DNA of 64,000 bases, taken from positions 16,016 to 80,015 of the forward strand of contig JAZNFA010000009.1 in assembly GCA_045588915.1 (NCBI GenBank), read 5' to 3'. This document shows positions 4,002 through 64,000 of the stretch, one piece after another. Every line of letters starts with the position of its first letter. The first letter of the stretch is position 1. The translations under genes were made by a program, and so were the position numbers. This DNA comes from Clostridia bacterium. Lineage in GTDB: Bacteria; Bacillota; Clostridia; Christensenellales; UBA1242. The notes beneath the pieces are model-generated. The model saw only the letters and a program-made list of their open reading frames with translations, was not told where the DNA came from and did no database searches.

Positions 4002-4145
4002 ATGGGTACTTGTTTGTGGAAGCAAGCAAGTCGTGTTCATTGAAAACTTAATACTTTGTACACATTTGTATAAGATTGTAGGTTTAATAAACACTATATC
4101 TTTGTCAATTTATGTCAGTCAAGAACTGAGTAATAAAATCAAATT

Positions 4146-5661
<1,516 letters not shown>

Positions 5662-7512: not shown

Positions 7513-7522
7513 ACGATTAATC

Positions 7523-10938: not shown

Positions 10939-11401
10939 GCCACGCTTATTATTAGCTGTTTGTTGTGGGCCGTGTGCGACGGTTGCTGTAGAAAGGTTAT
11001 CTGTTGATTATGATGTTACCTGTTTATTTTGGGGTGATAATTTAGACAGTTTAGATGAATTTAATCGTCGTTTGGAAGCTTTGTATAAATTGACCGATAA
11101 GGTAATTGTACATCCATATAATCATCAGAATTGGGAAGTGCAAAACTGTGTACGCTGTGTGACTTTGCGTCTGCAAAATGCTTTTGAGTATGTTGAGAAG
11201 TTAGGCTTTGATTACTTTGCAACATCATTGACAACCAGCCCACATAAGGATGCTGTGATGATAAATCAAGTAGGTGCAAGTATTAGTGATAAATATGTAC
11301 CTAGCGATTTTAAGAAGAAAGACGGCTTTAAGCGCAGTGTTGAATTATCGAAACAACTAAAAATGTATCGACAAAATTATTGTGGATGTGTTAAACCATA
11401 A
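10931..11401 (+). CDS. queH: epoxyqueuosine reductase QueH-like (DUF208)
   Basis: It has LLAVCCGPCA near the N-terminus and YRQNYCGC at the C-terminus. The start overlaps the plsX stop by 8 nt. Confidence 0.65.
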   Translation: MTKPRLLLAVCCGPCATVAVERLSVDYDVTCLFWGDNLDSLDEFNRRLEALYKLTDKVIVHPYNHQNWEVQNCVRCVTLRLQNAFEYVEKLGFDYFATSLTTSPHKDAVMINQVGASISDKYVPSDFKKKDGFKRSVELSKQLKMYRQNYCGCVKP

Positions 11402-11402
11402 T

Positions 11403-12239
11403 ATGAACTTACAAGCTGGGATTTGCCCAAAGTGTCATGAATATTTATTGATGAAACAAAACACGCCATTTTTAGTTTGTCCTAAATGTGGTGAAACTAT
11501 TTCAGCACAAACAGCTAATGCGTTTGTTGAGCGTCGTTGTGCTGATGCTAACCAGGTTAATGCAGTTATTGCTGAGTGTGTTGCTTTGGAAATTAAATAT
11601 GGTCCAGAGTTACCATTTATGTTGTTATCAAAAGTAGTTTCAAATTTTCCACATTTAGAGAGTCCAGCTTATTTGTTGGTTAAATTGTCAGGGTATGAGG
11701 CAGGTTTAGTTTATGATTATTTGAAAACTTTTGCTGGAACAAAAAGTGAACCGGGTAATGTGTCGTGGGCAGAAAGTTTTTTAGATAATTGTTTAAATTT
11801 TCAGACAATTGAATTTGCTGATTTATTTCGTGGTTATGTACGGAATAAAGTTCGTCCTGAAAAGCAACAACATTATTTAGATAAGATTGACAGCCTTGTG
11901 AAAGAATACACAACAAAGTCTTCAAGTCCTAATTCAACAAAATGGTTGATTACTTTGTATGTGATTTCAAGTATTGTGAATGTTGCTTTATTACCAGTAA
12001 TGATGCTTTTATCAGGCTGGATGTCACAATATTTTTCATTTTATTTTTTAGTGAATACTTTAATATCTTTAGCTGTTGTGTCGGTGGAAATTTTGTTGAT
12101 GGTTATTCATCATAAGATTTATGGTAACCGTTTAAATATCTCTTCGGTCGAGCGACTTTGGATGGTTATCTTTATGTCGACAATGGTCTTTGCTGTGGGG
12201 GCTGTGGTGATGGGAAGTATTTGGAAGATAACATTATGA
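11403..12239 (+). CDS. zinc-ribbon membrane protein, function unknown
   Basis: It has CPKCHEYL...CPKCGE at the N-terminus and three or four C-terminal TM segments. I prefer the ATG at 11403 over the upstream alternative start. Confidence 0.55.
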   Translation: MNLQAGICPKCHEYLLMKQNTPFLVCPKCGETISAQTANAFVERRCADANQVNAVIAECVALEIKYGPELPFMLLSKVVSNFPHLESPAYLLVKLSGYEAGLVYDYLKTFAGTKSEPGNVSWAESFLDNCLNFQTIEFADLFRGYVRNKVRPEKQQHYLDKIDSLVKEYTTKSSSPNSTKWLITLYVISSIVNVALLPVMMLLSGWMSQYFSFYFLVNTLISLAVVSVEILLMVIHHKIYGNRLNISSVERLWMVIFMSTMVFAVGAVVMGSIWKITL

Positions 12240-48621: not shown

Positions 48622-51255
48622 TTATTTATCTTTGCAAACGGCATTTTGGATGAGTTTGACAACTTCCACAACTGGAACAACTAAAGCAGAGAAACCGAGA
48701 CAGATTAACCATTGTGTTAAATTTAAGCTTTGTAAGTGGAAAACGCTGGCTAAGACTGGAATGAAAGCGATTGCTAAAATTGATACGATACTAACAAACA
48801 AGGAAATAACTAAGGTTTTGTTTTTGAATGGGTTTGAAGTAAAAATTGAGTGGTTAGTACGTACATTAAAGATATGGAATAACTGGATGAAGTTCAAAGC
48901 TAGGAATCCCATTGTAGAAGCAATAGCATCATTATAAAGTGTGCGGCCAACAACAAAGATTGCGATAACAATCAACGCTTGTAAAACACCTTGGTAACCA
49001 ATGTTAAAGGCAATTTTTTTGCTAATGATATTTTCATTTTGTTTACGTGGTTTGAGTTTCATTACGTCTTTTTCCACGCCTTCCATACCCATAGAAATTG
49101 CTGGCATAGTATCGGTAATCAAATTGATAAATAAGATTTGGACAGCAACCAAGAAAGTAACTTGTGGGAAAATCAGAGTAGTGAGTAAAATTGTTAACAC
49201 TTCGGCAATATTGCCACCTAATAAAAACTGTATGGTTTTTTGAATATTAGTATAAATCTTACGACCTTCTTCAACGGCAATAACAATGGTTGCAAAGTTA
49301 TCATCAGTCAAAATTAAGTCAGCAACTTGTTTGGTAACTTCGGTTCCGGTTTTTCCCATACCAACACCAATATGTGCCGATTTGATACTTGGGGCGTCAT
49401 TGACACCATCGCCGGTCATTGCAACAACTTTGCCCAGTGCTTTAAAAGCTTGAACAATACGAACTTTGTGTTCGGGACTGACACGTGCGTAAACTTTGAA
49501 TTTTACTACTTCGGTTTTTAATTCTTCGTCAGTAAATTGGTCAAGGTGTGCACCTTCAACAACTTCAGAATATTTAGTAACCATACCTAGTTCTTTAGCA
49601 ATGGCATAAGCTGTATCTTTGTGGTCACCGGTAATCATTACAGCTTGCATACCAGCTTGTTTGCATTTCTTTAATGCTTTGTAAACTTCAGCACGTGGTG
49701 GGTCAATCATTCCTGCCATACCAACAAAGGTTAATGCACTTTCCTTGATGTCATCTTGATTTGCGCAAGTACGGTATGCAAAACCGAGAACACGTAAAGC
49801 TTGTGAACAAAGGTTGGCGTTAGCATTTTTTAATGTCTCGATGTCTTCCGGTGTGATTTTACGAACTTCACCATTGATATCAATTTTAGTACAGCGTTTA
49901 ATAATTTCATCAAAAGCACCTTTCGTAAATTGTTGGTAATTTGGGTGATTAAGGTTGATGGTAGACATCAATTTGCGATTAGAATCAAAAGGAATTTCGT
50001 TGACACGTTGCCAAACTTGCTCAAGTGTGTTTTTGTGGTAACCGAACTTTTCGGCACAATCGAGCAAAGCAGTTTCGGTTGGGTCACCAATTAAATTATT
50101 CTCTTGTACTTTTGCGTCATTACATAAAACCATTGTGTTTAAAACGTTTGACATTAAGGCTTTATCGCATTGTTTAATATCATATTCCTGATTGTTGAGA
50201 ACAATTTTGCGCACGGTCATTTTGTTTTGTGTGATTGTTCCAGTTTTATCTGAACAAATGACTTCACAACAGCCTAAGGTTTCTACTGAGTGTAGGCGAC
50301 GAATAATAACGTTTTGTTTAGCAAGTTTGGTTACGCCGATGGAAAGAATAATTGTAACGACAATCATCATACTTTCCGGAATAGCTGCAACTGCAATAGC
50401 AACAGCTGTGATTAAAGATGTTGACCAGTGTTGTTTAGTAATAAAGATGTTGATTAGAAAAATTGCTGCAGCAATGACCAATACAGCCACAGTAATAAAT
50501 TGAGCAAATTTGTTTAAACTGTGTTGTAGTGTGGTTTTTTCTTTGGTTTGTTTTTGGTTTAACATTCCAGCAATTTTACCAATTTCGGTGTTCTGCCCGA
50601 CGGCGACAACTACACCCATACCACGACCATAAGTAACAACACTGGACGAGAATGCCATATTTTTACGGTCGCCGAGTGGTGTCTTTGATTCAAGGATTAA
50701 GTCAGCATTTTTGCTAATTGCCACGCTTTCGCCGGTAAGCATAGATTCATCGCATTTTAAATTGGCACTTTCAATTAAACGAAGATCAGCAGGTATAACA
50801 TCGCCGGCTTCTAATAATACGATGTCACCTTCGACTAAGTCTGAAGTTTGAACATAAACTACTTCGTTATTGCGTAATACCTTAGAGTAGGGCTGTGACA
50901 TATTCTTCAGTGACTGCATCGCATTTTCAGCTTTGGATTCTTGAACTACGCCTAAAACGGCATTTAAGACAACTATGAATAAAATAATAATTGTATCAAT
51001 AAATTCTGTAGCCCCATTGTTTTCGATGATACCAAAGACTAATGAAATCACCGCTGAAATTAAAAGTAGGATAATCATTACATCCTTAAACTGAACAAAG
51101 AGACGTGATAACCAGGATTGCTTTTTAATTTCGGCCAATTGGTTTTTGCCATTTTTTAATAATCTTTCTTGTGCATCTTTATCTGTGAGCCCTTGTTGTG
51201 AAGATTTTAATTCGGTTAAAACTTCACTAGCTGACTTTGTGTAAGTAAGTTCCAT
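48622..51255 (-). CDS. P-type Ca2+-transporting ATPase (P2A/YloB-like)
   Basis: It has TGES, CSDKTGTITQN, TGDHKDTA, MTGDGVNDAPS and ten TM segments. The start is MELTYTK at 51255. Confidence 0.9.
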   Translation of the reverse strand: MELTYTKSASEVLTELKSSQQGLTDKDAQERLLKNGKNQLAEIKKQSWLSRLFVQFKDVMIILLLISAVISLVFGIIENNGATEFIDTIIILFIVVLNAVLGVVQESKAENAMQSLKNMSQPYSKVLRNNEVVYVQTSDLVEGDIVLLEAGDVIPADLRLIESANLKCDESMLTGESVAISKNADLILESKTPLGDRKNMAFSSSVVTYGRGMGVVVAVGQNTEIGKIAGMLNQKQTKEKTTLQHSLNKFAQFITVAVLVIAAAIFLINIFITKQHWSTSLITAVAIAVAAIPESMMIVVTIILSIGVTKLAKQNVIIRRLHSVETLGCCEVICSDKTGTITQNKMTVRKIVLNNQEYDIKQCDKALMSNVLNTMVLCNDAKVQENNLIGDPTETALLDCAEKFGYHKNTLEQVWQRVNEIPFDSNRKLMSTINLNHPNYQQFTKGAFDEIIKRCTKIDINGEVRKITPEDIETLKNANANLCSQALRVLGFAYRTCANQDDIKESALTFVGMAGMIDPPRAEVYKALKKCKQAGMQAVMITGDHKDTAYAIAKELGMVTKYSEVVEGAHLDQFTDEELKTEVVKFKVYARVSPEHKVRIVQAFKALGKVVAMTGDGVNDAPSIKSAHIGVGMGKTGTEVTKQVADLILTDDNFATIVIAVEEGRKIYTNIQKTIQFLLGGNIAEVLTILLTTLIFPQVTFLVAVQILFINLITDTMPAISMGMEGVEKDVMKLKPRKQNENIISKKIAFNIGYQGVLQALIVIAIFVVGRTLYNDAIASTMGFLALNFIQLFHIFNVRTNHSIFTSNPFKNKTLVISLFVSIVSILAIAFIPVLASVFHLQSLNLTQWLICLGFSALVVPVVEVVKLIQNAVCKDK

Positions 51256-51262
51256 ATTTTTA

Positions 51263-51325
51263 ATTTTAGTACAGTCTAAAAAGATTATCAAATGATTTGC
51301 GAATATGTGTCAGAAGCATTATGAT
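51263..51325. promoter_or_regulatory. divergent promoter pair, both abutting their ATGs
   Basis: On the minus strand: TTGATA(51291-51286)-17-TAAAAT(51268-51263)-7 nt-ATG 51255. On the plus strand: TTGCGA(51297-51302)-17-TATGAT(51320-51325)-6 nt-ATG 51332. Confidence 0.55.
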
Positions 51326-51331
51326 ATAATA

Positions 51332-52351
51332 ATGATGGGGGAAGACGTCGAAAACTTGCAAGACGAAGAAGTTACCTTGAATGAAGGTAATTATGCTGAT
51401 GAAGCACAAAGTGATGAATTAGATGATTTGCAGGAGCGTGAAAATGCCTTAGCTGGTGCTCAGGCTGAATACGATGCTGTGCAAGATGGTGGTCTTGGTT
51501 ATTATGATGAAGATAGTTATAATTATAATTACAACGATTCAAGCCCTTTGACCGATGTTGATTATCGACCAGGTAACGATGAAAGTTCGGCATTTACGAA
51601 TAATTACACTGGCACAGATGATTATGACCCAATTCAACGTGATAACCAAGACGATGCTGACGATGTTATGGGTTATAACGATGATGAAGATTTCGATGGT
51701 GATGGTGACGACTTCGATGGCGATGATGATGACGAAGAAGACGACGATGAAGAAGATGAAGAAGATGAAGAAGATGACGATGAAGACGCCGAAGAAGATG
51801 ATGAAGAAGGCGAAGATGATGAAGGTAATGAAGACGGAAATGGTAAAAAAGGAAAGGGTAAAAAACAAAAAAAAGGTGCAACTAAAGAAAAAGAAATCGT
51901 AGTTAATGGTGTTAAGCTTTGGAAAAAAGGTGATCCCATTACAATTGAAGTTTTGTCGACACACTGGGATTTGTTTCGCGAACTACCAGAAATGCGTGAA
52001 ATGATGGACCAAGCTGATATGGCTGTTGAACAAGGTTTAAATACAACTGGACCGAATCTTATGATTAAAACTTTTAAATCAATTCAAAAAATTTCTGATC
52101 CAGATTCGGGAATAATTAGTGCTTTATTGAAAATGATTTCAAAACCCAGTTTAATGTTGACATATGGTGCTGCCGCTATTACGGAAGCAATCTTTGATCA
52201 ACAATGGTTGCAAGTAACTTTGATTTTTGGATTGAAAGCGGCGCTTAGTGTTGTTTTAAAAATGGATATAGTGAAATTTATTTTGGAAATGATTTTTGAA
52301 AAAGGTGTTGAGTTGTATAAAGCAAAACTCAAAAAAATTAAAAAGAAATAA
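51332..52351 (+). CDS. hypothetical protein with an extreme poly-D/E tract and a hydrophobic C-terminal region
   Basis: It contains DDFDGDDDDEEDDDEEDEEDEEDDDEDAEEDDEEGEDDEGNED followed by a K-rich patch. The start is at MMGEDV. Confidence 0.55.
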   Translation: MMGEDVENLQDEEVTLNEGNYADEAQSDELDDLQERENALAGAQAEYDAVQDGGLGYYDEDSYNYNYNDSSPLTDVDYRPGNDESSAFTNNYTGTDDYDPIQRDNQDDADDVMGYNDDEDFDGDGDDFDGDDDDEEDDDEEDEEDEEDDDEDAEEDDEEGEDDEGNEDGNGKKGKGKKQKKGATKEKEIVVNGVKLWKKGDPITIEVLSTHWDLFRELPEMREMMDQADMAVEQGLNTTGPNLMIKTFKSIQKISDPDSGIISALLKMISKPSLMLTYGAAAITEAIFDQQWLQVTLIFGLKAALSVVLKMDIVKFILEMIFEKGVELYKAKLKKIKKK

Positions 52352-52408
52352 ATTTAACCGTCAAGAAAATGGTCGACAACGATTGATTTTTGTATTATAA
52401 TATTAGTT

Positions 52409-52972
52409 ATGGAAGCAAAAAGTTTAAGACCTGGAAAATTATTTAAAATGGACGGCGTAGTTTACGAAGTTATTGACTATGAATTCCGTCAACAACCACG
52501 TTTGGCTGCTGCGATTAGTGCGAAAATTCGTAACATTAAAACCGGAGCAATCAGCGTAGAAAACTTCAAAGGAAATCCTGTTTTGGAAGACGTTGAAGTT
52601 GAAAAGAAAGAATTGCAATTTTCTTACAGTGATGGTGAAATCGTTCACTTTATGGATATGGAAACTTACGAAGATATTCCAGTTAATCGTGATTTGTGTG
52701 AAGCATCATTAAAATACAATGACGAAAATGGTGAGCCAATTGTTTGTACGTTTAACTATATTGATGGGAAAATTGCAAGCATTGTTCCTCCAACATTTGT
52801 TGTTTTGGAAGTTACCGAAACTGAACCAAGTGTTGCAGGCGATACAGCTCGTAACGCTTTGAAAAATGCAAAATTGTCAAGTGGTTTGGAAACTAAGGTA
52901 CCAATGTTTGTGAATAATGGCGATAAGATTCGTGTTGATACCAGAACTGGTGCTTACGTTGATCGTGCATAA
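52409..52972 (+). CDS. efp: elongation factor P family protein (Arg at the loop tip)
   Basis: It is 187 aa and collinear with EF-P (GDKIRVDTRTGAYVDRA at the C-terminus). The loop reads EFRQQPRLAAA instead of VKPGKGxA. Confidence 0.85.
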   Translation: MEAKSLRPGKLFKMDGVVYEVIDYEFRQQPRLAAAISAKIRNIKTGAISVENFKGNPVLEDVEVEKKELQFSYSDGEIVHFMDMETYEDIPVNRDLCEASLKYNDENGEPIVCTFNYIDGKIASIVPPTFVVLEVTETEPSVAGDTARNALKNAKLSSGLETKVPMFVNNGDKIRVDTRTGAYVDRA

Positions 52973-53018
52973 GTCTAGACAAATTTATAGCATAGTGTTA
53001 TAATACTATGCTACTTAT

Positions 53019-53094
53019 GACGGGTGTAGCCAAGTGGTAAGGCAATGGATTGTGGCTCCATTATGCGTGGGTTCGATTCCCATCTCCCGTCCCA
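53019..53094 (+). tRNA. tRNA-His (anticodon GTG) with encoded G-1 and CCA
   Basis: G-1 pairs with C73, the anticodon arm is ATGGA-TTGTGGC-TCCAT, and the T-loop is TTCGATT. A TGtTATAAT promoter lies upstream. Confidence 0.88.
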
Positions 53095-53406
53095 GCATAC
53101 CCTAACTCCCCAATAAAAATTACACATGCTATTGTGTTTTTGCAATTGGTCATTCCACAAAATAGAGCCCTGATTGTCGTCAGAGCTCTTTTTGTTTATT
53201 ACAGACAGTCGAATCAAAAATACGGTAGCATCACAAATACTTATTAGCGAAAATTAAAATAGTGGCAGTTAAGCGTATTTTTTAGAAAATCTAATATAAA
53301 ATTGTTTTGTAGAAATATGTAAAAAGTTTTTGCGGAAAACTTGTAAAAACTCTTGCATTTTCGGAAGTTTTTCTGTAAAATATATAAAGAAGGGGAATTG
53401 GGGAAA

Positions 53407-54606
53407 ATGATCATAAGACCAAATTATTTGGAAAAATTAAAACCATTTATAGACGTTAAGTTGGTGAAAATTCTTTCTGGAATTAGGAGATGTGGAAAAT
53501 CAACTATTCTTGAAATGTTAAAACAAGAGTTGATTAGCCGTGGTGTAAAAGAGAATAACATCATTACTCGAAAATATTCAGAAGAAGAATATGATGATTC
53601 TTTTACCTCAAAGGATATGTTCAATGATTTAAAATCTCAAATAGTTAATGATGATAAATATTATTTTTTATTAGACGAACTTCAAGAAATAACTGGTTGG
53701 GAAAAAGTTATTAATACTTTAATGGAAGATTATAATACTGATATTTATGTAACTGGTTCTAATTCAAAATTAATGAGCAGTGAAATATCTACATACTTAA
53801 CTGGTCGTTATATTACGATTCCAGTTTATACGCTTTCTTTTGAAGAATATTTGTCATTTAAAAACGGGACTGGAAAAAATAATAAAGAGTTATTCCAAGA
53901 ATATCTTCGCATTGGTGGATTCCCGTTAGTTGCAATCACTAATTTAAATGATACAAATGCTTACGATGTTGTCAAAGGAATCTATGATTCCGCGGTTCTT
54001 AATGATATTACTCGAAAACATAAAATTACTAATAGAGATTTGTTTAATCGTGTTGTTAAGTTTGTTATTGAAAATGTTGGTAAAACATTTTCTGCTAACT
54101 CAATCGTTAATTTCTTAAAATCAGAAAAAAGAACTATTTCAACTGAACTAATTTATAATTATTTAGAATATTTAGAAAAAGCGTTTATCATTTATCGTTG
54201 CCAACGATATGATTTGCAAGGCAAAAGTGTATTAAAGACACAAGAAAAATTTTATCTTGCTGATCAATCAATTAAATATGCACTTTATGGTTTTAATCCA
54301 ACGAGTATTGCAGCCATGCTTGAAAATGTTGTTTATTTTGAACTTAAGCGACGTGGTTATGATGTTTATATTGGTAAAAATTTAGACAAAGAGATTGATT
54401 TCGTAGCGACTCTCAGAGATGAAAAACTCTATGTACAAGTGTGTCGTGAATTGCCTAAGGAATCAGATAGAGAGCTGGCTAACCTTATGGAAATAAATGA
54501 TAATTATCCCAAAATGGTTGTTACTCTTGATGATTACGCTAATGGCAATTATAATGGGATTAAGATTGTAAATATAGTTGATTTTTTATTAAATAAAAAT
54601 ATATAA
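53407..54606 (+). CDS. AAA-type ATPase with a DUF4143-like C-terminal domain
   Basis: It has the Walker A GIRRCGKST, the Walker B YFLLDELQEI, and the C-terminal EIDFVAT...YVQVC. The start is ATG 53407 after a GGGGA SD, and a TTGCAT-17-TAAAAT promoter lies at about 53353-53381. Confidence 0.75.
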   Translation: MIIRPNYLEKLKPFIDVKLVKILSGIRRCGKSTILEMLKQELISRGVKENNIITRKYSEEEYDDSFTSKDMFNDLKSQIVNDDKYYFLLDELQEITGWEKVINTLMEDYNTDIYVTGSNSKLMSSEISTYLTGRYITIPVYTLSFEEYLSFKNGTGKNNKELFQEYLRIGGFPLVAITNLNDTNAYDVVKGIYDSAVLNDITRKHKITNRDLFNRVVKFVIENVGKTFSANSIVNFLKSEKRTISTELIYNYLEYLEKAFIIYRCQRYDLQGKSVLKTQEKFYLADQSIKYALYGFNPTSIAAMLENVVYFELKRRGYDVYIGKNLDKEIDFVATLRDEKLYVQVCRELPKESDRELANLMEINDNYPKMVVTLDDYANGNYNGIKIVNIVDFLLNKNI

Positions 54607-54636
54607 AGTTTACATGTATCTTGTTTTCAATCAAGT

Positions 54637-56115
54637 TTATATATAGTATTTTGCTTCTATAGTTGGTTGTTTGCTGGTAAAAGGATTTTTAAAGGTTGCA
54701 TCATAAAATGAATTCTGATCATCGTCAGGACCTCTTTTTAATGGACTAGTAAATAAAATTTCCATTTTATCGTTGTATAGTTTAATTTTTTTAACAAGTA
54801 CTGCGGCGATTTCTCTAGCGTGTCTTTCTAAAACATCACTGTAATATTTTCGTAATGATTCTCGGTCAAGTGGCATATTAATTTTCTCTCTTTCAATTGC
54901 TATATTCTTTTCAAGTGTTTTTACTTGTTCTTCAAGTTTGTTTATTCGTTCAATTAGTATTTGGGAAGCTGGACCTTGCGTGAGAAAGTTAATTAGATTA
55001 TTAATTGCTGTTTTAGCTTCTTGCTGTTCTTGTTCAAGAATATGTAAATGTTCAGTAAGTTTCTTTCTATCTGTTTTAAGATATAAGAGTTTATCAAGTA
55101 ACTTGTTCATAACTTTTGGTTTATTTAATTCACCAATAACTTTATGAATAACAAAACGTTCAAATAAATCCTTGGGTAGTGCAGTCTTAGGGCAACCACT
55201 AGGATTCTTGCGTTTTCCTTCGCAGCGGTAGTAATATCTTCTCACACCGTCTTTGTTCGTTCCAGAAGAGCCGTTGATACTTTCTCCGCAATATCCACAA
55301 ACAAGTTTCCTGCTGAAGATATAATTTGTGATTTTACTGATACCACCGAGTAGTGAGTGTGATTTTGCTCTTACTCGTTCATATACATCTTTATCAATAA
55401 TTTGTGGATACATGTTTTTATATTCTTCATCCCCATAGTGATAAACACCAGTGTAGTGTTCACTTTCAAGTATTCGAGAAACCACATAGTAGTTAAATGG
55501 TCTGCCACGATTTTTGATACCTTTAGCTTCTAACATGAGAAGAATGTCGTTGATATAATAACCAGAATCAAATTTTTCAAACATGTATTTAACTACAGCG
55601 GCTTCGTGTTCGTTGATAACTAACTTCTTGTTTTCTAGTTTGTAACCATAAGCTACAGCTCCGCCTTGGAAAGTTCCTTTAATGCGTGATTCTCGCATAC
55701 CACGTTTAATCTTCTGAGATAGTTCAGCAGAGAAGTATTGGTTCAAACTTTCAAGCAAGCCTTCAAGAATAATTCCTTCTGGTGTGTCTGGAATGTTCTC
55801 CATAGCTGACACTAGTTTAACGCCATTATCTCTTAATGTTTTTCGATGGAGAACAGTTTCGTATTTGTTTCGAGAAAAGCGGTCAAGTTTGTATACGATA
55901 ACATAATCCCATTCTTTTTTATAACTATCTTTAATCATGCGTTGAAATGCTGGTCGGCGATCATTAGTTCCAGTCATAGCACGATCAATGTATGAATCGA
56001 CAATTGAAATCTTGTTTCGTTCAGCATATTCCTTGCAAACACGAACTTGTCCGTCGATACTTTGTTCAGATTGATTGTCGCTAGAGTATCTAGCGTAGAT
56101 TAATGCTTTTTTCAT
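54637..56115 (-). CDS. large serine recombinase
   Basis: It has the resolvase catalytic N-terminus ALIYARYSSDNQ, a recombinase domain, the zinc ribbon CGYCGE...YYRCEG, and a coiled coil. An AGGAGG SD precedes it. Confidence 0.9.
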   Translation of the reverse strand: MKKALIYARYSSDNQSEQSIDGQVRVCKEYAERNKISIVDSYIDRAMTGTNDRRPAFQRMIKDSYKKEWDYVIVYKLDRFSRNKYETVLHRKTLRDNGVKLVSAMENIPDTPEGIILEGLLESLNQYFSAELSQKIKRGMRESRIKGTFQGGAVAYGYKLENKKLVINEHEAAVVKYMFEKFDSGYYINDILLMLEAKGIKNRGRPFNYYVVSRILESEHYTGVYHYGDEEYKNMYPQIIDKDVYERVRAKSHSLLGGISKITNYIFSRKLVCGYCGESINGSSGTNKDGVRRYYYRCEGKRKNPSGCPKTALPKDLFERFVIHKVIGELNKPKVMNKLLDKLLYLKTDRKKLTEHLHILEQEQQEAKTAINNLINFLTQGPASQILIERINKLEEQVKTLEKNIAIEREKINMPLDRESLRKYYSDVLERHAREIAAVLVKKIKLYNDKMEILFTSPLKRGPDDDQNSFYDATFKNPFTSKQPTIEAKYYI

Positions 56116-56138
56116 TTTTCCTCCTTAAAGTTTTTTTA

Positions 56139-56286
56139 TTTGTCTTACGACGGAGCGGAAAATAAACGGGAACTATAATTGTTTTTGTCTTAGATATTTT
56201 TCTTCTTTTACCAAGGGCGGGAAACCCGTGCATTTTACCCTTGGCAAAAGTTTGTTCCCGTTTACGCTCCATAGTCGTAAGACAAA
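56139..56286 (-). other. 148-nt nested inverted repeat (predicted structured RNA or DNA site) in the recombinase leader
   Basis: Outer arms: 13+6+11 bp (56139-56173 pairs with 56254-56286, with two bulges). Inner helix: 12 bp (56206-56217 with 56238-56249). It caps a CGGG-AAA-CCCG hairpin at 56218-56228. Confidence 0.6.
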
Positions 56287-56297
56287 GAAAATGGTAA

Positions 56298-56414
56298 TTA
56301 TTGATTGTCTTTGTTTTGCAATTCTTCAAAATCTTTCAACATTTCAAGGCAGATAGCATCATTCAACACATCAACATCGATTTCGTTGAGAAAAATAACC
56401 TCTAAATCTTCCAT
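56298..56414 (-). CDS. 38-aa acidic mini-protein upstream of the recombinase
   Basis: It is not in the ORF track. The sequence is MEDLEVIFLNEIDVDVLNDAICLEMLKDFEELQNKDNQ. An AAGGGGG SD sits 8 nt upstream of the ATG. Confidence 0.4.
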   Translation of the reverse strand: MEDLEVIFLNEIDVDVLNDAICLEMLKDFEELQNKDNQ

Positions 56415-56477
56415 TGTTTTTACCCCCTTTTGTATGGATTGTGGGGAGTAGCATACTAAAAAAAATACAACATTACA

Positions 56478-56553
56478 ATATCATTTATGTCAATCTTTGT
56501 ATCATTTTATATCATTTATGTAACATTTATATCAACTTATATATCATTTATGT
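56478..56553. repeat. iteron-like direct repeats in the recombinase/hsdM divergent region
   Basis: ATATCATTTATGT occurs at 56478, 56509 and 56541 (31-32 bp phasing). Degenerate copies (TATCATTTTAT, ACATTTATAT) lie between them. Confidence 0.7.
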
Positions 56554-56638
56554 ATCAAAAATATTCACTTTAAAGTGCGTCAAGAAGCTCGAACAATAAA
56601 ATAAAGACAAATATTATATCCCGTGTTATAATTTTGTA

Positions 56639-58249
56639 ATGGCGAAGAAAACGAAAGAAACCGTAAATAATCTTGATTCAATTTTGTTTAAATGTAGAGA
56701 TATTTTGAGGGCGGCAAGAAACTCCGGCTCTTTCTTTGAAAAAAGAGATATGATGTTGACCCTTATTTTTTTAAGGCTTATTGGGGAGAAGTATGAAGAC
56801 GGAATTGATAAATTAAAAGAGACTTTGATTGCACAAGGATTAGATCCAGAAGATGAAAATATACGAGCAGCGTTCTTCGATGATGCGACATTTACTGACG
56901 GAACGTATAATTTACCTAAAGAAGCACAGTGGTCGGAAATTATTAATAAGCCAGCGCCACAATTAAATGTTGCCCTTGATACCGCACTTAAACGAATTTC
57001 AGAAACCACAAAACAATTAAAAGGTTGCTTCGTTGAAGGAACTTTTACCACAAGAAATTTGGGTGCCAATGATATTAAGAAACTGGTTGATGAGGTTAAT
57101 AAAATTAGTCATAAAGCATTCGGCGAAGAAAAAGATTTGATTGGTCACGTGTATGAATATTTCTTGAAAGAATTTGCGATTAACGCGACAAAAGAAGAAG
57201 GCGAATTCTATACGCCACATGATGTTGTTCAATTAATTGCGGCTATGGTTGAACCATTTAACGGAACATTATATGACCCGGCTTGTGGTTCGGGCGGAAT
57301 GTTTATTCAAAGTGCAGACTTGGTAAAGTCTAAACAAGGTAACTTAAACGGTATCAATGTTTATGGACAAGAAAAAGATGCCGCAACATATCGTTTGGCC
57401 AAAATGAATTTGGCACTGCGTGGTATCAGCCATAATCTCGGCGACACGAACGATTCAACTTTTACCAATGATTTACATAAAGGATTGTATTTTGATTACA
57501 TTATGGCTAATCCGCCATTCAACCTTAAAACTTGGTATGATGCGAATTTGGAAAATGATGCACGTTGGGCTGATTATGTAACACCGCCAGAAAGCAACGC
57601 TAACTATGCTTGGATTTTACATATGTTATCCCACTTGAAACCAAGTAATGGCGTGGCTGGTTTCTTATTGGCAAATGGTGCTTTGAATGATAGTGATACT
57701 TTGGAAATTCGTAAAAGATTAATTCAAAATGATAAAGTTGAAGCCATCATCGTTTTGCCACGCCAACTATTCTTTACAACTGATATCAGTGTTACCTTGT
57801 GGATTCTTAACCAAAACAAAAAAGGTGGTAAATATCACGATAGAAAACAAAGAAATCGTGAGCACGAAATTTTGTTTATGGATTTAAGAACCTGGACGGA
57901 AAATGCGGTTAAAGACGAACAAAAGAAAAAAGTTGCTTTATCGTCGGAACAAATTGAAAAAGCCGCCCAGATTTATCACGATTGGCAATGTGAAGGTGTG
58001 GATGGAAAATATTATGAAGTCCCTGAATTATACCGCAGTGTTTTAATTGATGAAATTGAAAAGCAAGGTTGGGCTTTGACACCGAGTAAGTATATTGAAT
58101 TTATCGACCATGATTTGCAAATTGATTATGAAAAAGAAATGAAGCGTATCCAACAGGAAATGTCCAATATTATTGATGCTGAAAAAAAATCCCAGAAAAT
58201 GTTAGCAGAAGCTTTTGAAGGAATTGGCTATGGCATTGAAAACAATTAA
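56639..58249 (+). CDS. hsdM: type I restriction-modification methyltransferase subunit
   Basis: It has the HsdM N-terminal domain, DPACGSGGMF (motif I) and ANPPFN (motif IV). Confidence 0.93.
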   Translation: MAKKTKETVNNLDSILFKCRDILRAARNSGSFFEKRDMMLTLIFLRLIGEKYEDGIDKLKETLIAQGLDPEDENIRAAFFDDATFTDGTYNLPKEAQWSEIINKPAPQLNVALDTALKRISETTKQLKGCFVEGTFTTRNLGANDIKKLVDEVNKISHKAFGEEKDLIGHVYEYFLKEFAINATKEEGEFYTPHDVVQLIAAMVEPFNGTLYDPACGSGGMFIQSADLVKSKQGNLNGINVYGQEKDAATYRLAKMNLALRGISHNLGDTNDSTFTNDLHKGLYFDYIMANPPFNLKTWYDANLENDARWADYVTPPESNANYAWILHMLSHLKPSNGVAGFLLANGALNDSDTLEIRKRLIQNDKVEAIIVLPRQLFFTTDISVTLWILNQNKKGGKYHDRKQRNREHEILFMDLRTWTENAVKDEQKKKVALSSEQIEKAAQIYHDWQCEGVDGKYYEVPELYRSVLIDEIEKQGWALTPSKYIEFIDHDLQIDYEKEMKRIQQEMSNIIDAEKKSQKMLAEAFEGIGYGIENN

Positions 58250-59339
58250 GTTGGGTGAATTAATTGAAATATCAGAAGAAGTAAATTCTGATTTAAAATA
58301 CTCATTGGATGATGTAAAGGGTATTTCAATCAATAAAATATTTATAGAAACCAAAGCAGATATGCAGGGTGTTTCTTTAAAGCCTTACTTACTTGTGAAA
58401 CCAGATTATTTTTCTTATGTTCCAACGACTTCAAGGAACGGTGAAAAAATTACTTTAGCACATAATAATACAAGGGATACTTATATTGTATCATCTTCAT
58501 ATGTCGTTTTTTATAATAAGAGACCAGATTTGTTGAATTCTGATTATTTGTTTATGTATTTTAATCGACCAGAATTTGATAGATACTCAAGGTTTAATTC
58601 TTGGGGTTCAGCAAGAGAGACTTTTTCATGGGAAGAAATGTGTGATATCGAAATTGAACTGCCAGATTTACCTACGCAAAAGAAATATGTTGATGTTTAT
58701 TTGTCAATGATTGAAAATCAAAAAGCATACGAACGTGGTCTTGATGATTTGAAATTAACTTGCGATGCCTATATTGAAGATTTGCGCCGTAGAATGCCAT
58801 GCGAAGAAATTGGACCATATCTTATTAAGTCTGAAAAAAATTCAGATGGTAATATTAAGAGAGTTTTGGGTATAGGGCAGACAGGGTTTATTTCACCACA
58901 AAAGGATCCGAATGAATCACTTAAAAATTATAAAATTCTAACTGATGGTTGTATTTGTTACGCACCACCGTTGTATAATATTTTGACTGGTGCAATACAT
59001 TGTTATACACAAATAGAAAAAGCAGTTTGTTCACCTATATACGAAGTTTTCACTTGCAATAAAGAAAAAATTTTACCAGAGTATTTAACATTGTGGTTAA
59101 AACGAAGTGAGTTTATTAGATACGCTGCGTTTTATGCATTAGGTGTGAGACAAACATTTGATTATAATTTAATGGAAGAATTTAAAATTCCGATTCCTTC
59201 ATTTGAAATTCAAAAAGCAATTGTGGATATTTATAAAACCTATGTTGAACGAAAAGAAATTAACGAACGATTGAAAAAGCAAATCAAAGACATTTGCCCA
59301 ATTTTAATTAAAGGTTCAATCGAAGAGGGTAAGAAATGA
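58230..59339 (+). CDS. hsdS: type I R-M specificity subunit
   Basis: It has two target-recognition halves separated by conserved helical spacers (YLSMIENQKAYERGLDDLK, IVDIYKTYVERKEINERLKK). The start overlaps the hsdM end. Confidence 0.85.
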   Translation: MALKTIKLGELIEISEEVNSDLKYSLDDVKGISINKIFIETKADMQGVSLKPYLLVKPDYFSYVPTTSRNGEKITLAHNNTRDTYIVSSSYVVFYNKRPDLLNSDYLFMYFNRPEFDRYSRFNSWGSARETFSWEEMCDIEIELPDLPTQKKYVDVYLSMIENQKAYERGLDDLKLTCDAYIEDLRRRMPCEEIGPYLIKSEKNSDGNIKRVLGIGQTGFISPQKDPNESLKNYKILTDGCICYAPPLYNILTGAIHCYTQIEKAVCSPIYEVFTCNKEKILPEYLTLWLKRSEFIRYAAFYALGVRQTFDYNLMEEFKIPIPSFEIQKAIVDIYKTYVERKEINERLKKQIKDICPILIKGSIEEGKK

Positions 59340-61132
59340 ACACGCAAGAGTTAAACGAATACATTAAAAATTATTTAGAGAATGATAAAACCCAGCGTGC
59401 AATTATGTTAACTGCACCTTGGGGTAGCGGTAAAAGTTATTATATAAAAAATAACCTTTGTAATTTTTTGCATGAAAAAAAATTAGATTATGCAATAGTT
59501 TCGTTGTATGGAATTAAAGAGTTAAAAGATGTGAGCAAGAATCTATATTTAGAAATCAGAGCTAATGCTCTTACTAAAAAAAATGAAAAAGCTGCCTTAG
59601 TTAAAATAGTTGGGAAAACACTGCTTAAGGGAGTTGCCGGCTTGTTTCATGTCGATTTAAATCAATCAGAAGAAGATCTACAAAAACTATACGAATCTAT
59701 AGAGTTGACAAATAGACTGATTATATTCGAGGATATTGAAAGAACAAGTATCGATATTGTTGATTTTTTAGGTTATGTAAATAACCTTGTTGAACAAGAT
59801 GGTGTCAAGGTCCTTCTAGTCGCTAATGAGGAAGAAATCAAACAAATAGAAACGGTTGAAAATGGGAAAGTAAAAAAAGATGAAAATATAAAATATATTA
59901 AAATTAAAGAAAAAACAGTTTCTGACACGATAAAATTTACATGTGATAGAAATAATTCCATTGAAAATATAATTAGACAATTTACAAAAAATGAATGGTT
60001 TTCTTCAATGGTTGATAATCCTGAATTTAATCTGGCTGGCAAAATAGGACAAATAATGATAAAAACTGAATCGTATAATTTTAGATCATTATTGTTTGCT
60101 TGCCAAAAGACTGTTGATATTTTTAATATGCTTCCAAGAAGCAAAAATTATAATTTAGATTTTTTAACGAAGTTTTTTCTGGAAACTGTTGAATATTGTT
60201 TAAGAGAAGAGGAATTAAATAGAAATAAATTTAATGAAGAAAAACCAGATTCTAATAATGAAAATAATGATAGCATAAGTAAAATAATTTCTAATTTTAA
60301 AATTGAGAACAGATTGAATAATGTTATGAAAAATTATATTGATAATCAAATTTTTGATATAAATGAGTTTGAACTTATGCAAAGTCAATTTATTTCTTCG
60401 CAAAAAACAGAAGAAGCAAATGCTGTTTTATATAAAATATATTATTATTTGGATTTTACAGAAGAAGAATTAAAATCTGCTATTGATGAATTATATGAAA
60501 AATTAAAAACAAATACAGGCATTAGTTACAATAGTTATATAAAGATTGCTCAATATTTGTTTGAAATAGATAAATATATTAGTTATCAAAGGATCAACGA
60601 TTGTATTAAACAAATGAAGAATAATCTAAAAACTGGGATACAAGTTGGCGATAAAGTGCAGACACATGTTTGGGGCGGATCAGTTATACAGAATGAAAAA
60701 GAGAATGATGAATTTAATAAATTTAGAACGTATATTTCTAGTCTAATTCAAGAAAAGAATGAAATTGATTTTGACTATAATCCTGAAAGCATTGAAAACT
60801 ATGTTTTTAAAGATCTGAAACACCAATTTATGGAAGACCGTGGTTTTATGAAGCAATTTAATATCGAAAAACTTTTGGCGATGTTAGAAAAATGTTCTCC
60901 TAAACAAATCGGTTATTGCAACGAGATTTTAAACCAAGTTTATATGGCTTATTATAACGTTTTTGATTTTATGTCTGATGATTTGAAAAATTTAATTAAG
61001 TTGAAGAATGGTGTTGATTCTATGATTAAAGAAAACACAAATATTGATAAAATCAAAAAAATAAGAATGGGCTTTTTGTCGGATAAGTTAGATGTTATAA
61101 TAAAAAAATTACGAGGAGAAGAAAATGTCTAA
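59336..61132 (+). CDS. KAP-family P-loop NTPase embedded in the type I R-M operon
   Basis: It has the Walker A LTAPWGSGKSYY and a Walker B-like LIIFEDIERT. About 400 aa of K/N/E-rich C-terminal region has no motif I recognise. It has an ATGA overlap with hsdS and an 8-nt overlap with hsdR. Confidence 0.75.
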   Translation: MNTQELNEYIKNYLENDKTQRAIMLTAPWGSGKSYYIKNNLCNFLHEKKLDYAIVSLYGIKELKDVSKNLYLEIRANALTKKNEKAALVKIVGKTLLKGVAGLFHVDLNQSEEDLQKLYESIELTNRLIIFEDIERTSIDIVDFLGYVNNLVEQDGVKVLLVANEEEIKQIETVENGKVKKDENIKYIKIKEKTVSDTIKFTCDRNNSIENIIRQFTKNEWFSSMVDNPEFNLAGKIGQIMIKTESYNFRSLLFACQKTVDIFNMLPRSKNYNLDFLTKFFLETVEYCLREEELNRNKFNEEKPDSNNENNDSISKIISNFKIENRLNNVMKNYIDNQIFDINEFELMQSQFISSQKTEEANAVLYKIYYYLDFTEEELKSAIDELYEKLKTNTGISYNSYIKIAQYLFEIDKYISYQRINDCIKQMKNNLKTGIQVGDKVQTHVWGGSVIQNEKENDEFNKFRTYISSLIQEKNEIDFDYNPESIENYVFKDLKHQFMEDRGFMKQFNIEKLLAMLEKCSPKQIGYCNEILNQVYMAYYNVFDFMSDDLKNLIKLKNGVDSMIKENTNIDKIKKIRMGFLSDKLDVIIKKLRGEENV

Positions 61133-64000
61133 TTTTAACGGTCGTTATTGTGAATCAGAATACGAGAATGCTTTTATCGGATTACTAGAACGAGAAGGAT
61201 GGCAATATCTTTCTGGTAAAAATTTTCCAAGGACTTATAAAAGAGATGTATTAAACATTGAAGATTTAACACAGTATTTGACCAAAACAAATCCGGATTT
61301 AGATAATGAAGATATACAGAGTATTGTTAACCAAGTTAAGTTAGTTGGTGCTGAAAGTGATTTTGCAACCTTACATAAGGTTTATGGTTGGATGGTTAAT
61401 GGTGTCCAATTTAAACCGAAACATAGTAGTGCAAGAATGGTTTCTTTAATTGATTTTGAAAATCCACAAAACAACCTTTTTAAAGTTGTTAATCAACTAA
61501 AGATTGAATACACAAATAACGGTGTAAACGAAGTTAGAATTCCCGATGTTCTTTTGTATGTTAATGGGATGCCAGTTTGCGTCTTTGAATTAAAAAATCC
61601 AGCCGATGCGAAAGCAACAATTCTTAATGCTTGGGAACAAATTACAATTCGTTATTGGCGTGATATTCCGCATTTGTTACATTACTGTCCATTGGCTTGT
61701 ATCTCTGATGGTGTTAAAACAAGATTAGGAACTGTAAAGACGCCTTATGAACATTTCTATGCTTGGCGTCGTGTTAATGAAGGGGATAAACTTTCTACAT
61801 TTTCATTTGAAGAAACTGAAACGATGATTAAAGGTGTTTATTCGCCAGTTAGATTTCTTGAAATATTTAGAGATTACATTTATTTCCAAGATACTATCTA
61901 TGATAAGAATGAAGTAGAAATTGTTTGCCGTTATCCACAATTCTTTGCAACTAAATTATTAAAGCAAAGTATTATTAAATCTATCAACGAAAAGAGTGGC
62001 AAGGGTGGTACATATTTTGGGGCTACTGGATGCGGGAAAACTTATACGATGGCATTCTTGGCTCGTCAACTAGCATTAAGATGCACTGACATACCGCAAA
62101 TTGGTTCGCCAACAATTATCATGATTGTTGATAGGGAAGATCTACAAAAGCAAGGAGCAAAGTTATTTACTAAAAGTAAAGAGTTCTTAAATCTTGGCGA
62201 AGTTTCTGTTATTCCAAATAGAAACAAGTTAAGAGAAGAACTTGGAACAAGACAAAGCGGCGGTTTTTACATTTGTACTATTCAAAAATTTATTGATCGT
62301 GAAGATGACAAAATTGGGTTAATTAATGACCGTGCTAATATCATTTGTTTTTCGGATGAAGCGCATAGAACACAACTTGAACATTCTAAGAAAATTCAGT
62401 TCAGTAAAGATGCCGATGCTAATATGAAAGCGATGATTTCAAAACCATACGCAAAGGTTTTGAAAGAAGCTTTCCCAAATGCAACATTTGTTGGTTTTAC
62501 AGGAACTCCAATTGCGGAAACATATCAAACATTTGGTGATGAAATTGATAGATATACAATGGACCAAGCTGTTGCTGATGGCTTGACTGTTCCAATTAAA
62601 TATCATCCAAGAATTGCAAAAGTGTTGCTTGATTCTGATAAGGTTAATCAAATCGAAGCCTATTATAAACAATGCGCCGATAATGGTGCTACGGAACAAG
62701 ACATTGCTGCAAGTGAAAGAGCGATGAGTTCTATGGAAGTTATTTTGGGCGACCATTCTCGTTTGGAACGATTAGCAACAGATATTCATGATCATTATGT
62801 AAAAGCGTGTGATGAAGATCCAGATAGAATTCAAAAAGCAATGATTGTTTGTTCAAAACGTGAAATTGCCTATGATCTATTGAAAGAATTTGAAAGGCAA
62901 TATCCAGAATGGTTTGTCGAAAAGAAATCAACAGATGGGGTAAAAGTTACTTCTGAAGAATTGAAAGAGTTAAAACCAATGCCATTTATTGCAATGGTTT
63001 CTAGTGTCGGTAAAAATGATAAAGAAGAAATGTATAACTATCTCGGTGGAGTGAAAAACAACCAGCGTTCGAGCGAACTTGATGTAATGTTTAAAAATGA
63101 TAAATCCAATTTCCACATTGTTATTGTCGTAGATATGTGGATTACTGGATTTGATGTACCGTCGCTTACTTTTATGTATAATGATAAGCCACTTCAAAAA
63201 CATCAACTTATCCAAACAATTAGTCGTGTTAACCGAAAATATTCTGGCAAGAATTATGGTCTGATTGTCGATTACATTGGTATTAGAGATAATATGCGTC
63301 AGGCAATGAAAATATATGGTGGTGATAATTCTGTAGCACCAAGCGAAGACGATGTAGAACAAGCAACAATAGCCTTTAGAGAAGAGTTAGAAATCTTAAA
63401 AAGATTATTTATTGGTTATGATTTAACTCCATTTATGAATCCTAATTGTGACCCTATCGAAAGATATAAATTATTATCAAAAGCCGCTGAATATGTTTTT
63501 TCATCGACTCAGGAAATGCAAACACCAACTGAATATGCATCTATGAAAGTGGCTTATAAAACTTATTTCTTGAATACGGTTAAGAGAATGCGTACAGCGT
63601 TTGAAATATGTCAACCGTCTGGTGAACTTGGGGAAGAAGAATCTGCATTAGCTCAATGTTTTATGGCTGTTGCTGGTTTTATTCGCAAAATGAGTGGAAC
63701 TGCTGATATTGATGCTGACACGATGAATCGTTATGTTTCTATAATGGTCGAAGAAGCTCTTAAATATAACAAGGTTGAAAGTATACTAGAAAAAGACGAT
63801 GAGGAAGATATATTCAGTGCTGAATATTTTGAAAAGTTATCTGATATTAAATTGCCTGCTACGAAACTTGAAATATTAATCAAATTGCTGCGCAGACAAA
63901 TAAAAGAATATGGATTAACAAACCAAGTTGCCGCCAAACAATTCCATGAAATGCTTGAAAAGACGATTAAAGTTTATCACGAAAGACGTAAACATTTAAC
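61125..64000 (+). CDS. hsdR: type I R-M restriction (helicase-nuclease) subunit, 3' end beyond the window
   Basis: It is not in the ORF track because there is no stop in the window. My translation is MSNFNGRYCESEYENAFIGLLE... It has the nuclease motif IPDVLLYVNGMPVCVFELKNP, the Walker A GATGCGKTY, and the DEAH box FSDEAHRTQ. I checked that the frame is open at the window end. Confidence 0.9.
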   Translation, partial: MSNFNGRYCESEYENAFIGLLEREGWQYLSGKNFPRTYKRDVLNIEDLTQYLTKTNPDLDNEDIQSIVNQVKLVGAESDFATLHKVYGWMVNGVQFKPKHSSARMVSLIDFENPQNNLFKVVNQLKIEYTNNGVNEVRIPDVLLYVNGMPVCVFELKNPADAKATILNAWEQITIRYWRDIPHLLHYCPLACISDGVKTRLGTVKTPYEHFYAWRRVNEGDKLSTFSFEETETMIKGVYSPVRFLEIFRDYIYFQDTIYDKNEVEIVCRYPQFFATKLLKQSIIKSINEKSGKGGTYFGATGCGKTYTMAFLARQLALRCTDIPQIGSPTIIMIVDREDLQKQGAKLFTKSKEFLNLGEVSVIPNRNKLREELGTRQSGGFYICTIQKFIDREDDKIGLINDRANIICFSDEAHRTQLEHSKKIQFSKDADANMKAMISKPYAKVLKEAFPNATFVGFTGTPIAETYQTFGDEIDRYTMDQAVADGLTVPIKYHPRIAKVLLDSDKVNQIEAYYKQCADNGATEQDIAASERAMSSMEVILGDHSRLERLATDIHDHYVKACDEDPDRIQKAMIVCSKREIAYDLLKEFERQYPEWFVEKKSTDGVKVTSEELKELKPMPFIAMVSSVGKNDKEEMYNYLGGVKNNQRSSELDVMFKNDKSNFHIVIVVDMWITGFDVPSLTFMYNDKPLQKHQLIQTISRVNRKYSGKNYGLIVDYIGIRDNMRQAMKIYGGDNSVAPSEDDVEQATIAFREELEILKRLFIGYDLTPFMNPNCDPIERYKLLSKAAEYVFSSTQEMQTPTEYASMKVAYKTYFLNTVKRMRTAFEICQPSGELGEEESALAQCFMAVAGFIRKMSGTADIDADTMNRYVSIMVEEALKYNKVESILEKDDEEDIFSAEYFEKLSDIKLPATKLEILIKLLRRQIKEYGLTNQVAAKQFHEMLEKTIKVYHERRKHL

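Follow-up and report, generated by a model that had tools for sequence, protein, structure and literature searches.

The element described here is a nested inverted repeat at positions 56139-56286 of a 64,000-nucleotide (nt) stretch of Clostridia bacterium DNA (hereafter the window; assembly GCA_045588915.1, contig JAZNFA010000009.1, forward-strand positions 16,016-80,015). It is a conserved structured element and not a chance palindrome, and the reading favoured here, with a probability of about 0.55, is that it acts in cis as an mRNA leader regulating translation of the next gene. In the window this gene encodes a large serine recombinase and, as an earlier note on the sequence had reported, the element fills the gap between a 38-amino-acid (aa) open reading frame (ORF), hereafter the mini-ORF, and the Shine-Dalgarno (SD) sequence of the recombinase gene (coordinates in Table 1). 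Large serine recombinases move many islands, phages and resistance cassettes into and out of genomes and are also genome-engineering tools, while the restraint of their expression is poorly understood. Recombinases of two subfamilies share this leader with a sigma-like regulator gene and with an operon for anti-restriction, in many genera of small-genome Clostridia and in other gut taxa; being shared across genes and carriers, the leader would therefore be a common control point for the movement or establishment of mobile elements. Structured cis-regulatory leaders of mobile-element genes are a known kind, of which this element is most likely an undescribed member. It constitutes a well-supported new RNA motif, with >100 instances, five covarying helices and a testable output (SD occlusion), and is a sequence handle for finding integrative modules in metagenomes.

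All pairings of the nested repeat claimed in the earlier note are present in the sequence, and the nested architecture is the minimum-energy fold of both strands. Folded as RNA, segment 56130-56295 reaches -66.8 kcal/mol on the minus strand, which is the recombinase-sense strand (z -10.65), and -62.1 kcal/mol on the plus strand (z -7.11); with DNA parameters the z-scores of the two strands are -9.43 and -7.81 with unchanged architecture, and in each case none of 200 shuffles folded as well. A repeat finder returned the arms as repeats I2 (56134-56151/56274-56291, 94% complementary), I14 (56163-56173/56254-56264, 100%) and I10 (56205-56217/56238-56250, 92%), and also reported I9. Helices P1, P2 and P3 together make a quasi-continuous duplex of ~30 base pairs (bp) enclosing helix P4, a one-sided internal loop and the apical hairpin P5. 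An octamer, TTGTCTTA, had been said to recur in the element; it is indeed present at 56140 and 56185 and inverted at 56278, but the loop containing the 56185 copy is unconserved among homologues. Two further statements hold: the element is not followed by a U-run, no terminator being called, and it matches no RNA family of Rfam 15, a scan at E<=1 having placed nothing on it in window positions 50000-64000 or in eight divergent loci. In this part of the window the scan returned only tRNA-His at 53020 and one sub-threshold chance match elsewhere.

The distribution of the element was established with two covariance models, R1 from seven close copies and R2 from 27 aligned homologues, and with a degenerate core pattern scanned over species genomes (at least 120 stretches, 80 loci examined), metagenome contigs (at least 118 stretches, 80 loci examined) and viral contigs (26 stretches). 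The covariance models confirm at least 74 loci in species genomes, 72 of them distinct, and at least 36 instances at E<=1e-8 in metagenome contigs; a true instance was found in one of the 26 viral pattern matches. By BLAST, 49 of 401 same-family genomes, spanning 20 of 58 genera, contain a match, and the window's own 904-kb assembly holds a second copy, 84% identical and again before a recombinase gene. No BLAST match was found in the phage collection, nor by blastn (word 11) among 72,556 plasmid records, for which the presence of pLS20 was unchecked. Carriers are mostly labelled as uncultured Clostridia or Christensenellaceae-type metagenome-assembled genomes from animal and human gut, a few being labelled Coprobacillus, Anaeroplasmataceae, Phascolarctobacterium, Gastranaerophilales and others. 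No description of the element was found in the open full-text literature; subscription journals and supplements lay outside this search, so that a prior description is possible. A CASP16 paper returned by the literature search was set aside, as it concerns a protein-DNA complex.

Model R2 detects six sense-strand copies in the window's genome. Four, including the window's own, abut recombinase genes; one has diverged and precedes the sigma-like gene of a fifth module, and one is a remnant that no gene follows. The genome encodes five recombinase paralogues, the other four being 43-51% identical to that of the window, and copies of the leader before proteins of such low identity suggest that its conservation with the gene is deep. 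Five recombinases and six leaders (contigs C9, C4 twice, C7 and C1; window 54637-56115) make a striking load of integrative modules for a 904-kb genome.

Covariation was measured on three covariance-model alignments, A5 (27 sequences), A6 (72 distinct sequences) and the independent A7 (34 metagenome sequences and one viral sequence). Paired cells amount to 90.1, 89.1 and 89.5% in A5, A6 and A7, respectively, compared with 81.0, 79.0 and 81.8% after shuffling. Compensatory changes occur at 28, 29 and 22 of the 46 pairs, as against 13.7 +/- 1.7, 21.1 +/- 1.7 and 14.2 +/- 1.8 in shuffles and 5-11, 11-14 and 4-8 in slid controls; in each alignment, 0 of 500 shuffles reached the observed value. In A6, double-change cells number 332 versus 94.9 in shuffles, and the covariation score is 0.301 versus 0.121. 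Alignments fitted to a model lean towards its structure; the slid controls, together with single-sequence folds in which 26 of 26 homologues individually adopt the same P1-P5 rod, argue that the signal is real despite this. Conservation and covariation upstream of homologous recombinases, whose absence would have told against the earlier note, were found in A5-A7, and neither of the other refuting outcomes named in it was observed. MAFFT and RNAalifold alone had recovered only P1 and P4, and this alignment was replaced by the covariance-model alignments because its 3' half was misaligned; a first model alignment, A4, was dropped because it contained reverse-strand echoes of the quasi-palindrome.

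Compensatory pairs are found in all five helices, which differ in how they are conserved. P2, P4 and P5 vary freely in sequence yet stay paired, and as many as 4-5 pair types are seen at one position: among the 72 homologues, changes are compensatory at 6/6 pairs in P2 and at 9/13 pairs in P4, where 96.4% of cells are paired and the top is nearly fixed, and in P5 3/3 modelled pairs covary. The P1 core GUCUUUCG/CGAAAGAC is close to invariant, and the P3 segment AAACG/CGUUU is unchanged in 72/72 homologues and in the independent 35/35, while the GG/CC of P3 becomes AA/UU in relatives. The columns of the internal loop, UAAARUGYAY, are nearly invariant (alignments A2 and A6), and this loop exists on the 5' side only; the A-rich loop at 56174-56204 roughly maintains its length across homologues and is unconserved in sequence.

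The strand of action had been argued in the earlier note from a single position that is G-U on the minus strand and A-C on the plus strand. This argument does not generalize, since the 72 homologues contain 137 sense G-U cells versus 118 A-C cells (67 versus 56 in A7; 40 versus 36 in a smaller, earlier count). Conservation is nonetheless specific to the sense strand, as seen in the one-sided loop and in the U of UAAACG, which is invariant although its partner is A in 15, G in 25, C in 11 and U in 21 of the 72 sequences. The orientation of the element relative to the next gene is also constant. At pair 37/229, A-C occurs in 34/72 sequences and G-U in none, and P2 has 44 A-C cells; such cells cluster where the 3' arm retains C, which fits a second constraint on this arm. 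We infer that the active form is RNA.

What follows the element is more varied than the initial link to recombinase genes implied. Among the 74 genome loci, 61 are followed by a type-A recombinase (four with broken ORFs, one cut by the contig end), nine by a 62-69-aa ORF and a DUF4368-type large serine recombinase, and three by a long operon of small genes that includes ArdA and DUF7222 and lies near a tRNA gene and an element end; one locus is degenerate. The 35 other instances precede a type-A recombinase (20), a small ORF (nine) or a sigma-like gene (two), four being unresolved. The element is therefore not tied to recombinase genes only, and a single placement before such varied genes is explained only by an expression signal. 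An AGGAG-type SD stands just downstream in 71 of the 72 distinct sequences, the base of the element being 10-35 nt upstream of the ribosome site and the start codon a median of 28 nt past P1 (57 of the 74 loci, those with a simply found start). One module may hold two copies: at locus L045 two same-strand copies, 1.1 kb apart and together within 1.3 kb, precede, respectively, an extracytoplasmic function (ECF)-sigma-like gene (TIGR02937, E 1.1e-6, under the cut-off) and the recombinase gene, with a mini-ORF between the two copies, and a second case is found at G000 C4:1421.

Because an SD behind the element is the sole feature common to the downstream genes, SD accessibility was tested. In full-length RNA the median predicted probability that the SD is unpaired is 0.78 (71 sequences, as for the values below), and omission of the 5' arm lowers the prediction to 0.29 and 0.28. 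The main partner predicted for the SD in RNA truncated in this way is A6 columns 243-246, which correspond to the 3' strand of P2 (P2b: CGCUCC, CGCUCU, GUUCCC etc.), a second partner being columns 227-230 (UUCC of P3b, the 3' strand of P3). Native 3' arms hide the SD more than mononucleotide shuffles do (0.15 versus 0.33), the native value being lower in 55/71 sequences. The opposite strand of P2 (P2a) is a purine in at least 94% of sequences at each of its first four positions, with variants GGAG, GAAG, AGAG and GGAA; the other helices mostly retain pair orientation too, so that this purine run is supportive and not decisive. Of the three roles proposed in the earlier note, a cis-regulatory RNA controlling recombinase translation thus fits best, on the evidence of SD placement and predicted SD behaviour.

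The mechanism proposed is one of competing segments. In the window, the element would be the intercistronic part of a transcript running from the mini-ORF to the recombinase gene and would fold into the P1-P5 rod. The pyrimidine runs of its 3' arm, CGCUCC in P2b and UUCC in P3b, are complementary to the AAAGGAG SD; in the intact fold they would be held by the purine-rich 5' arm (the GGAG-like P2a), leaving the SD free. Should the 5' arm be missing, cleaved or occupied, the 3' arm would close on the SD and translation would stop, the 5' arm thus serving as anti-anti-SD, the 3' arm as anti-SD, and the SD being the third part. A factor setting the state would probably make contact at the conserved, unpaired UAAARUGYAY loop and at the invariant helix AAACG/CGUUU; possible triggers include a nuclease, a protein on P3-P5, ribosomes that terminate on the ORF upstream, and an internal start. 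A small ORF starting at RUG in the UAAARUG loop was considered and rejected: it would have 1-112 codons or no stop, and its frame is not kept (57 of 72 sequences parsed). What the data show is the structure, its covariation, its constant placement and orientation ahead of SD-led genes and, by prediction, how the SD behaves; SD occlusion as the output of the leader is what we infer from the modelled folds.

SD/anti-SD leaders are familiar from translational riboswitches and from the fold-back inhibition of IS10 transposase mRNA. The present element resembles them as a structured 5' leader at a ribosome site, with a pyrimidine stretch that closes on the SD and a third, competing segment and, in the case of IS10, as a predicted restraint on the recombination enzyme of a mobile element. 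It differs in that the default full fold leaves the SD open, occlusion requiring loss or occupation of the 5' arm, and it has no sequence or Rfam relation to these leaders. In concept, the closest published parallel is EGeRS1 of the pLS20 plasmid family, described in PMC8708921 as highly structured conserved blocks directly before the ribosome-binding sites of establishment and anti-restriction operons in Gram-positive mobile elements, where the authors could not decide whether ssDNA (single-stranded DNA) or RNA is the active form. The likeness lies in placement before the ribosome-binding sites of several operons and in repetition within one element, as here at L045 and G000 C4:1421; EGeRS1 is ~325 nt or longer and branched, whereas the present element is an unbranched rod of 150-165 nt found mainly before integrase genes.

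Several points weigh against a translational leader. The full hairpin (-66.8 kcal/mol) is too stable to open alone, which excludes a plausible spontaneous switch; something must therefore remove or occupy the 5' arm, and the model needs an active trigger. The SD/anti-SD signal is a thermodynamic prediction made in U-rich and A-rich sequences that are related and non-independent, and retention of pair orientation in P2 is just slightly stronger than in P4. G-U cells do not clearly exceed A-C cells in either alignment counted above, which is unusual for a structured RNA. As to transcription, four sequencing runs hold shares of 0.06-0.20, and a few short contigs from RNA or possibly-RNA libraries cover the SD and 3' arm and, in relatives, the whole element (Table 1); these contigs are strandless, partly derived from relatives and possibly due to DNA carry-over, and do not directly prove a transcript. 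Scans around the window locus and the paralogous locus gave neither a convincing upstream promoter nor a usable terminator, and no minus-strand promoter site was found within the window element. A promoter would also have little room in three loci where a hairpin, in one of them with a T-run, immediately precedes the element.

The modules to which the element belongs bear on the alternatives. The complete order is an end motif, a GC hairpin, a variant of the element, a sigma-like gene, the mini-ORF, a HUH Rep gene, the element and the recombinase gene; the module of the window is reduced to mini-ORF, element and recombinase, without Rep. In 17 of the loci compared, the gene directly before the element encodes the HUH rolling-circle Rep (PF23343, E 4.4e-10). 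The Rep protein has 292-293 aa, is encoded between the mini-ORF and the leader and displays, by eye, the motifs FCTFTY, HFHGIF and the two-tyrosine YIMKYIRK. At the edge of the conserved module there is a conserved hairpin motif of ~60 nt, GCGTGTGCTTGTCTTGATACAAG...AAGACAAGCACACG, which contains CTTGATA and recurs 10-2450 nt before the leader, on the coding strand; CTTGATA resembles the nick site of rolling-circle initiators of the pC194/phiX174 type. This end motif adjoins a second long GC-rich hairpin with the conserved loop GCGCAGGCTTnTCGC, followed in some loci by a T-run, which could be a terminator or a single-strand origin.

That the element is active as folded ssDNA, either as a Gram-positive promoter of the Frpo/ssi kind or as a rolling-circle element's single-strand origin or priming site, is unlikely. 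This alternative keeps some probability because the wobble counts are neutral, G-U and A-C being about equal in frequency, because complete modules carry the Rep gene immediately upstream, with the CTTGATA hairpin motif on the same strand in many loci, and because the ArdA context is Frpo-like. Both strands also fold equally well with DNA parameters, and in the three ArdA loci the upstream hairpin leaves an ordinary promoter little room. In F-like and IncI plasmids, Frpo/ssi are ssDNA segments that fold into a promoter (PMC11541004). According to that paper, Frpo is a long imperfect hairpin of single orientation directly before entry-related ORFs including ardA, a site comparable to that of the present element at the head of the ArdA-type operon near an element end; it has a recognizable -35 TTGACA and -10 TATAAT in its stem, and is known from Proteobacteria, none being found in the Gram-positive example treated there. 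In the present element such a pair is not conserved: sigma-A -35/-10 matches of at least 9/12 are about as common in natural sequences (26/107) as in shuffled ones (23/107) and have no fixed place. Moreover, no BLAST similarity exists among the plasmid records searched, and nicking at CTTGATA, if that is the site, would displace the coding strand, useless as a template for the downstream gene. The fixed SD spacing and the anti-SD pattern would be left unexplained as well. A first Gram-positive analogue of Frpo, in which folded ssDNA would express integrase, sigma and anti-restriction genes upon entry into a new gut bacterium and fall silent once double-stranded, is quite improbable. Single-strand origins of the ssoA type, found in rolling-circle plasmids, are imperfect palindromes of ~150 nt, and the present element likewise is a non-coding imperfect palindrome of ~150 nt in an element that encodes a HUH Rep; it differs in being tied to the SD of the next gene, in being kept in Rep-less modules, including that of the window, and in occurring twice in one module, which is odd for an origin.

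A passive RNA, namely a 5' or intercistronic stabilizer, an RNase III processing site that sets mRNA half-life or an insulator separating the recombinase gene from the ORF before it, without any switch, is improbable. Double-strand RNases would be suited by the quasi-continuous P1-P2-P3 duplex, and one metatranscriptome contig, with the adapter at its other end, starts in P2b at 56156 and enters the recombinase gene; this lone contig end may be a random fragment end, and such a function would not call for an invariant AAACG/CGUUU, a loop conserved on one side or an apical hairpin that persists from genus to genus.

It is very doubtful that the element serves as a double-stranded DNA site for the recombinase or a module regulator, be it an operator, an accessory site or an attachment (att) site. 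The motif TTGTCTTW is clustered here, 5 of its 15 window matches lying within the 470 bp of 56140-56610, including the edge of the conserved module, and the stems of P1 and P3 hardly vary in sequence; in staphylococcal ccrAB, an inverted repeat upstream of the recombinase genes reportedly modulates expression. A palindrome recognized by a protein would, however, not change its sequence with pairing kept, as P2, P4 and P5 do, and this free change, together with the intact arms, makes a protein site or an att site unlikely. The suggestion that it is a recombination site is contradicted by chromosomally integrated copies in many genomes, in which both arms are intact and the element lies inside the conserved module. 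Its 148 nt and five nested helices are also unlike the att sites of large serine recombinases, which are roughly 50 bp long.

Still less credible is a trans-acting or guide-like RNA partnering the recombinase in the manner of IS110 bridge RNAs: the element is non-coding, structured and directly before a recombinase gene, with a variable long loop and helix P2, but it also precedes non-recombinase genes, which makes such a role unlikely, and always abuts an SD. Large serine recombinases recognize DNA via protein domains, and no complementarity of the variable parts to module ends stood out by eye, no systematic test having been run. An inverton was rejected since the interior consists of nested covarying helices and not of a non-palindromic segment, the opposite orientation not having been sought in reads.

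Table 1. Coordinates of the element, its parts and associated features (window positions unless a locus or a sequencing record is named; sense, recombinase-sense strand)
Feature	Position	Strand	Details
Whole structured element	56132-56290	-	model R2 positions 1-159, 168.8 bits, E 1.4e-36
P1 5' arm	56274-56286	-	sense UUUGUCUUACGAC; partner 56139-56151; I2
P2 5' arm	56265-56270	-	sense GGAGCG, SD-like purine run; partner 56152-56157
P3 5' arm	56254-56264	-	sense UAAACGGGAAC; partner 56163-56173; I14
P4 5' arm	56238-56250	-	partner 56205-56217; I10
One-sided internal loop	56229-56237	-	sense UAAAAUGCA; consensus UAAARUGYAY
P5 apical hairpin	56218-56228	-	sense CGGG-UUU-CCCG (plus strand CGGG-AAA-CCCG)
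A-rich variable loop	56174-56204	-	between P4 and the P3 3' arm
3' arm	56139-56173	-	P3b GUUCCCGUUUA, bulge UUUUC, P2b CGCUCC, P1b GUCGUAAGACAAA
Recombinase SD and start	56113-56126	-	SD AAGGAGG 56126-56120, ATG 56115-56113; read from sequence
Recombinase gene	54637-56115	-	large serine recombinase, 492 aa; Pfam Resolvase + Recombinase + Zn_ribbon_recom
Mini-ORF	56298-56414	-	38 aa, own GGGGG ribosome site, stop at 56298-56300; small acidic protein
Other mini-ORF instances	L320:1313-1441; L321:1071-1211; L045:2581-2787		small acidic protein
Repeat/promoter-like region	56466-56610		edge of conserved module; direct repeats D1 and D2
HUH Rep gene	L039:9816-10697 (-); L320:1422-2300; L321:1180-2058		
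CTTGATA hairpin motif	L039:11500-11565; L040:~7500-7560; L041; L045:~4130-4190		also L020, L025, L030, L031, L037, L048
Second GC-rich hairpin	L039:~11330-11420 (-); L009:~8620-8700; L011; L020; L040		
Run contig, X1 record 1	55997-56156		
Run contig, X2 record 7	56131-56321		12 differences
Run contig, X3 record 9	56190-56311		
Flanking defence genes	window 56639-64000; L009:8884-9834; L039:11708-15012; L199:4014-5944; L099:1-1798		

The window recombinase matches the PHROG 95 integrase (E 9.7e-108), and its top NCBIfam models are Ccr recombinases, with scores far under the cut-offs. The mini-ORF has no family match in searches of domain and family libraries. Homologous small ORFs exist upstream in L010, L014, L017 and L031 and, in Rep-carrying modules, upstream of the Rep gene; the product, encoded upstream in all these modules, is conserved, acidic and small (38-68 aa), follows the pattern IxN(D/E)LDLSxIxNEF..LL and is a candidate directionality factor or regulator. 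In the window, the 3' end of the mini-ORF (56304-56317) is 86% complementary to the P1 5' arm (56279-56292; repeat I11), so that the two segments may pair as an alternative, except while the mini-ORF is being translated.

Upstream of the mini-ORF, similarity to the sister locus L042 stops at 56610, the end of a region (56466-56610) that is also conserved in the paralogous locus L009. Beyond it lies a divergent operon of type I restriction-modification genes that includes a KAP NTPase gene. An earlier placement of the type I restriction genes outside the mobile element was withdrawn, since the break in similarity may just mark the module edge beside variable cargo. In every locus viewed closely, restriction-modification or other defence genes lie beside the recombinase module (Table 1), including type I restriction-modification with KAP NTPase, an Eco57I-like methylase, C5 and D12 methylases with an HNH nuclease, a methylase-nuclease pair (by eye) and GmrSD; these flanking genes suggest that the modules carry defence cargo. 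An abiF RNA (RF03085) is found at L097:2878-2914 (+), scoring 42.1 against a gathering threshold of 37 bits, ~320 nt upstream of the leader and on the opposite strand.

On the other side, the recombinase gene is followed by an AAA_14/DUF4143 ATPase gene and then by the tRNA-His. The segment 53089-53192, just past this tRNA, is common to the same-genus genome L042, where it lies 6.3 kb from the tRNA; this probably makes the 3' end of tRNA-His a hot spot for insertion, with elements in tandem. In L045, L039 and L119, tRNA genes likewise adjoin the recombinase end of the module.

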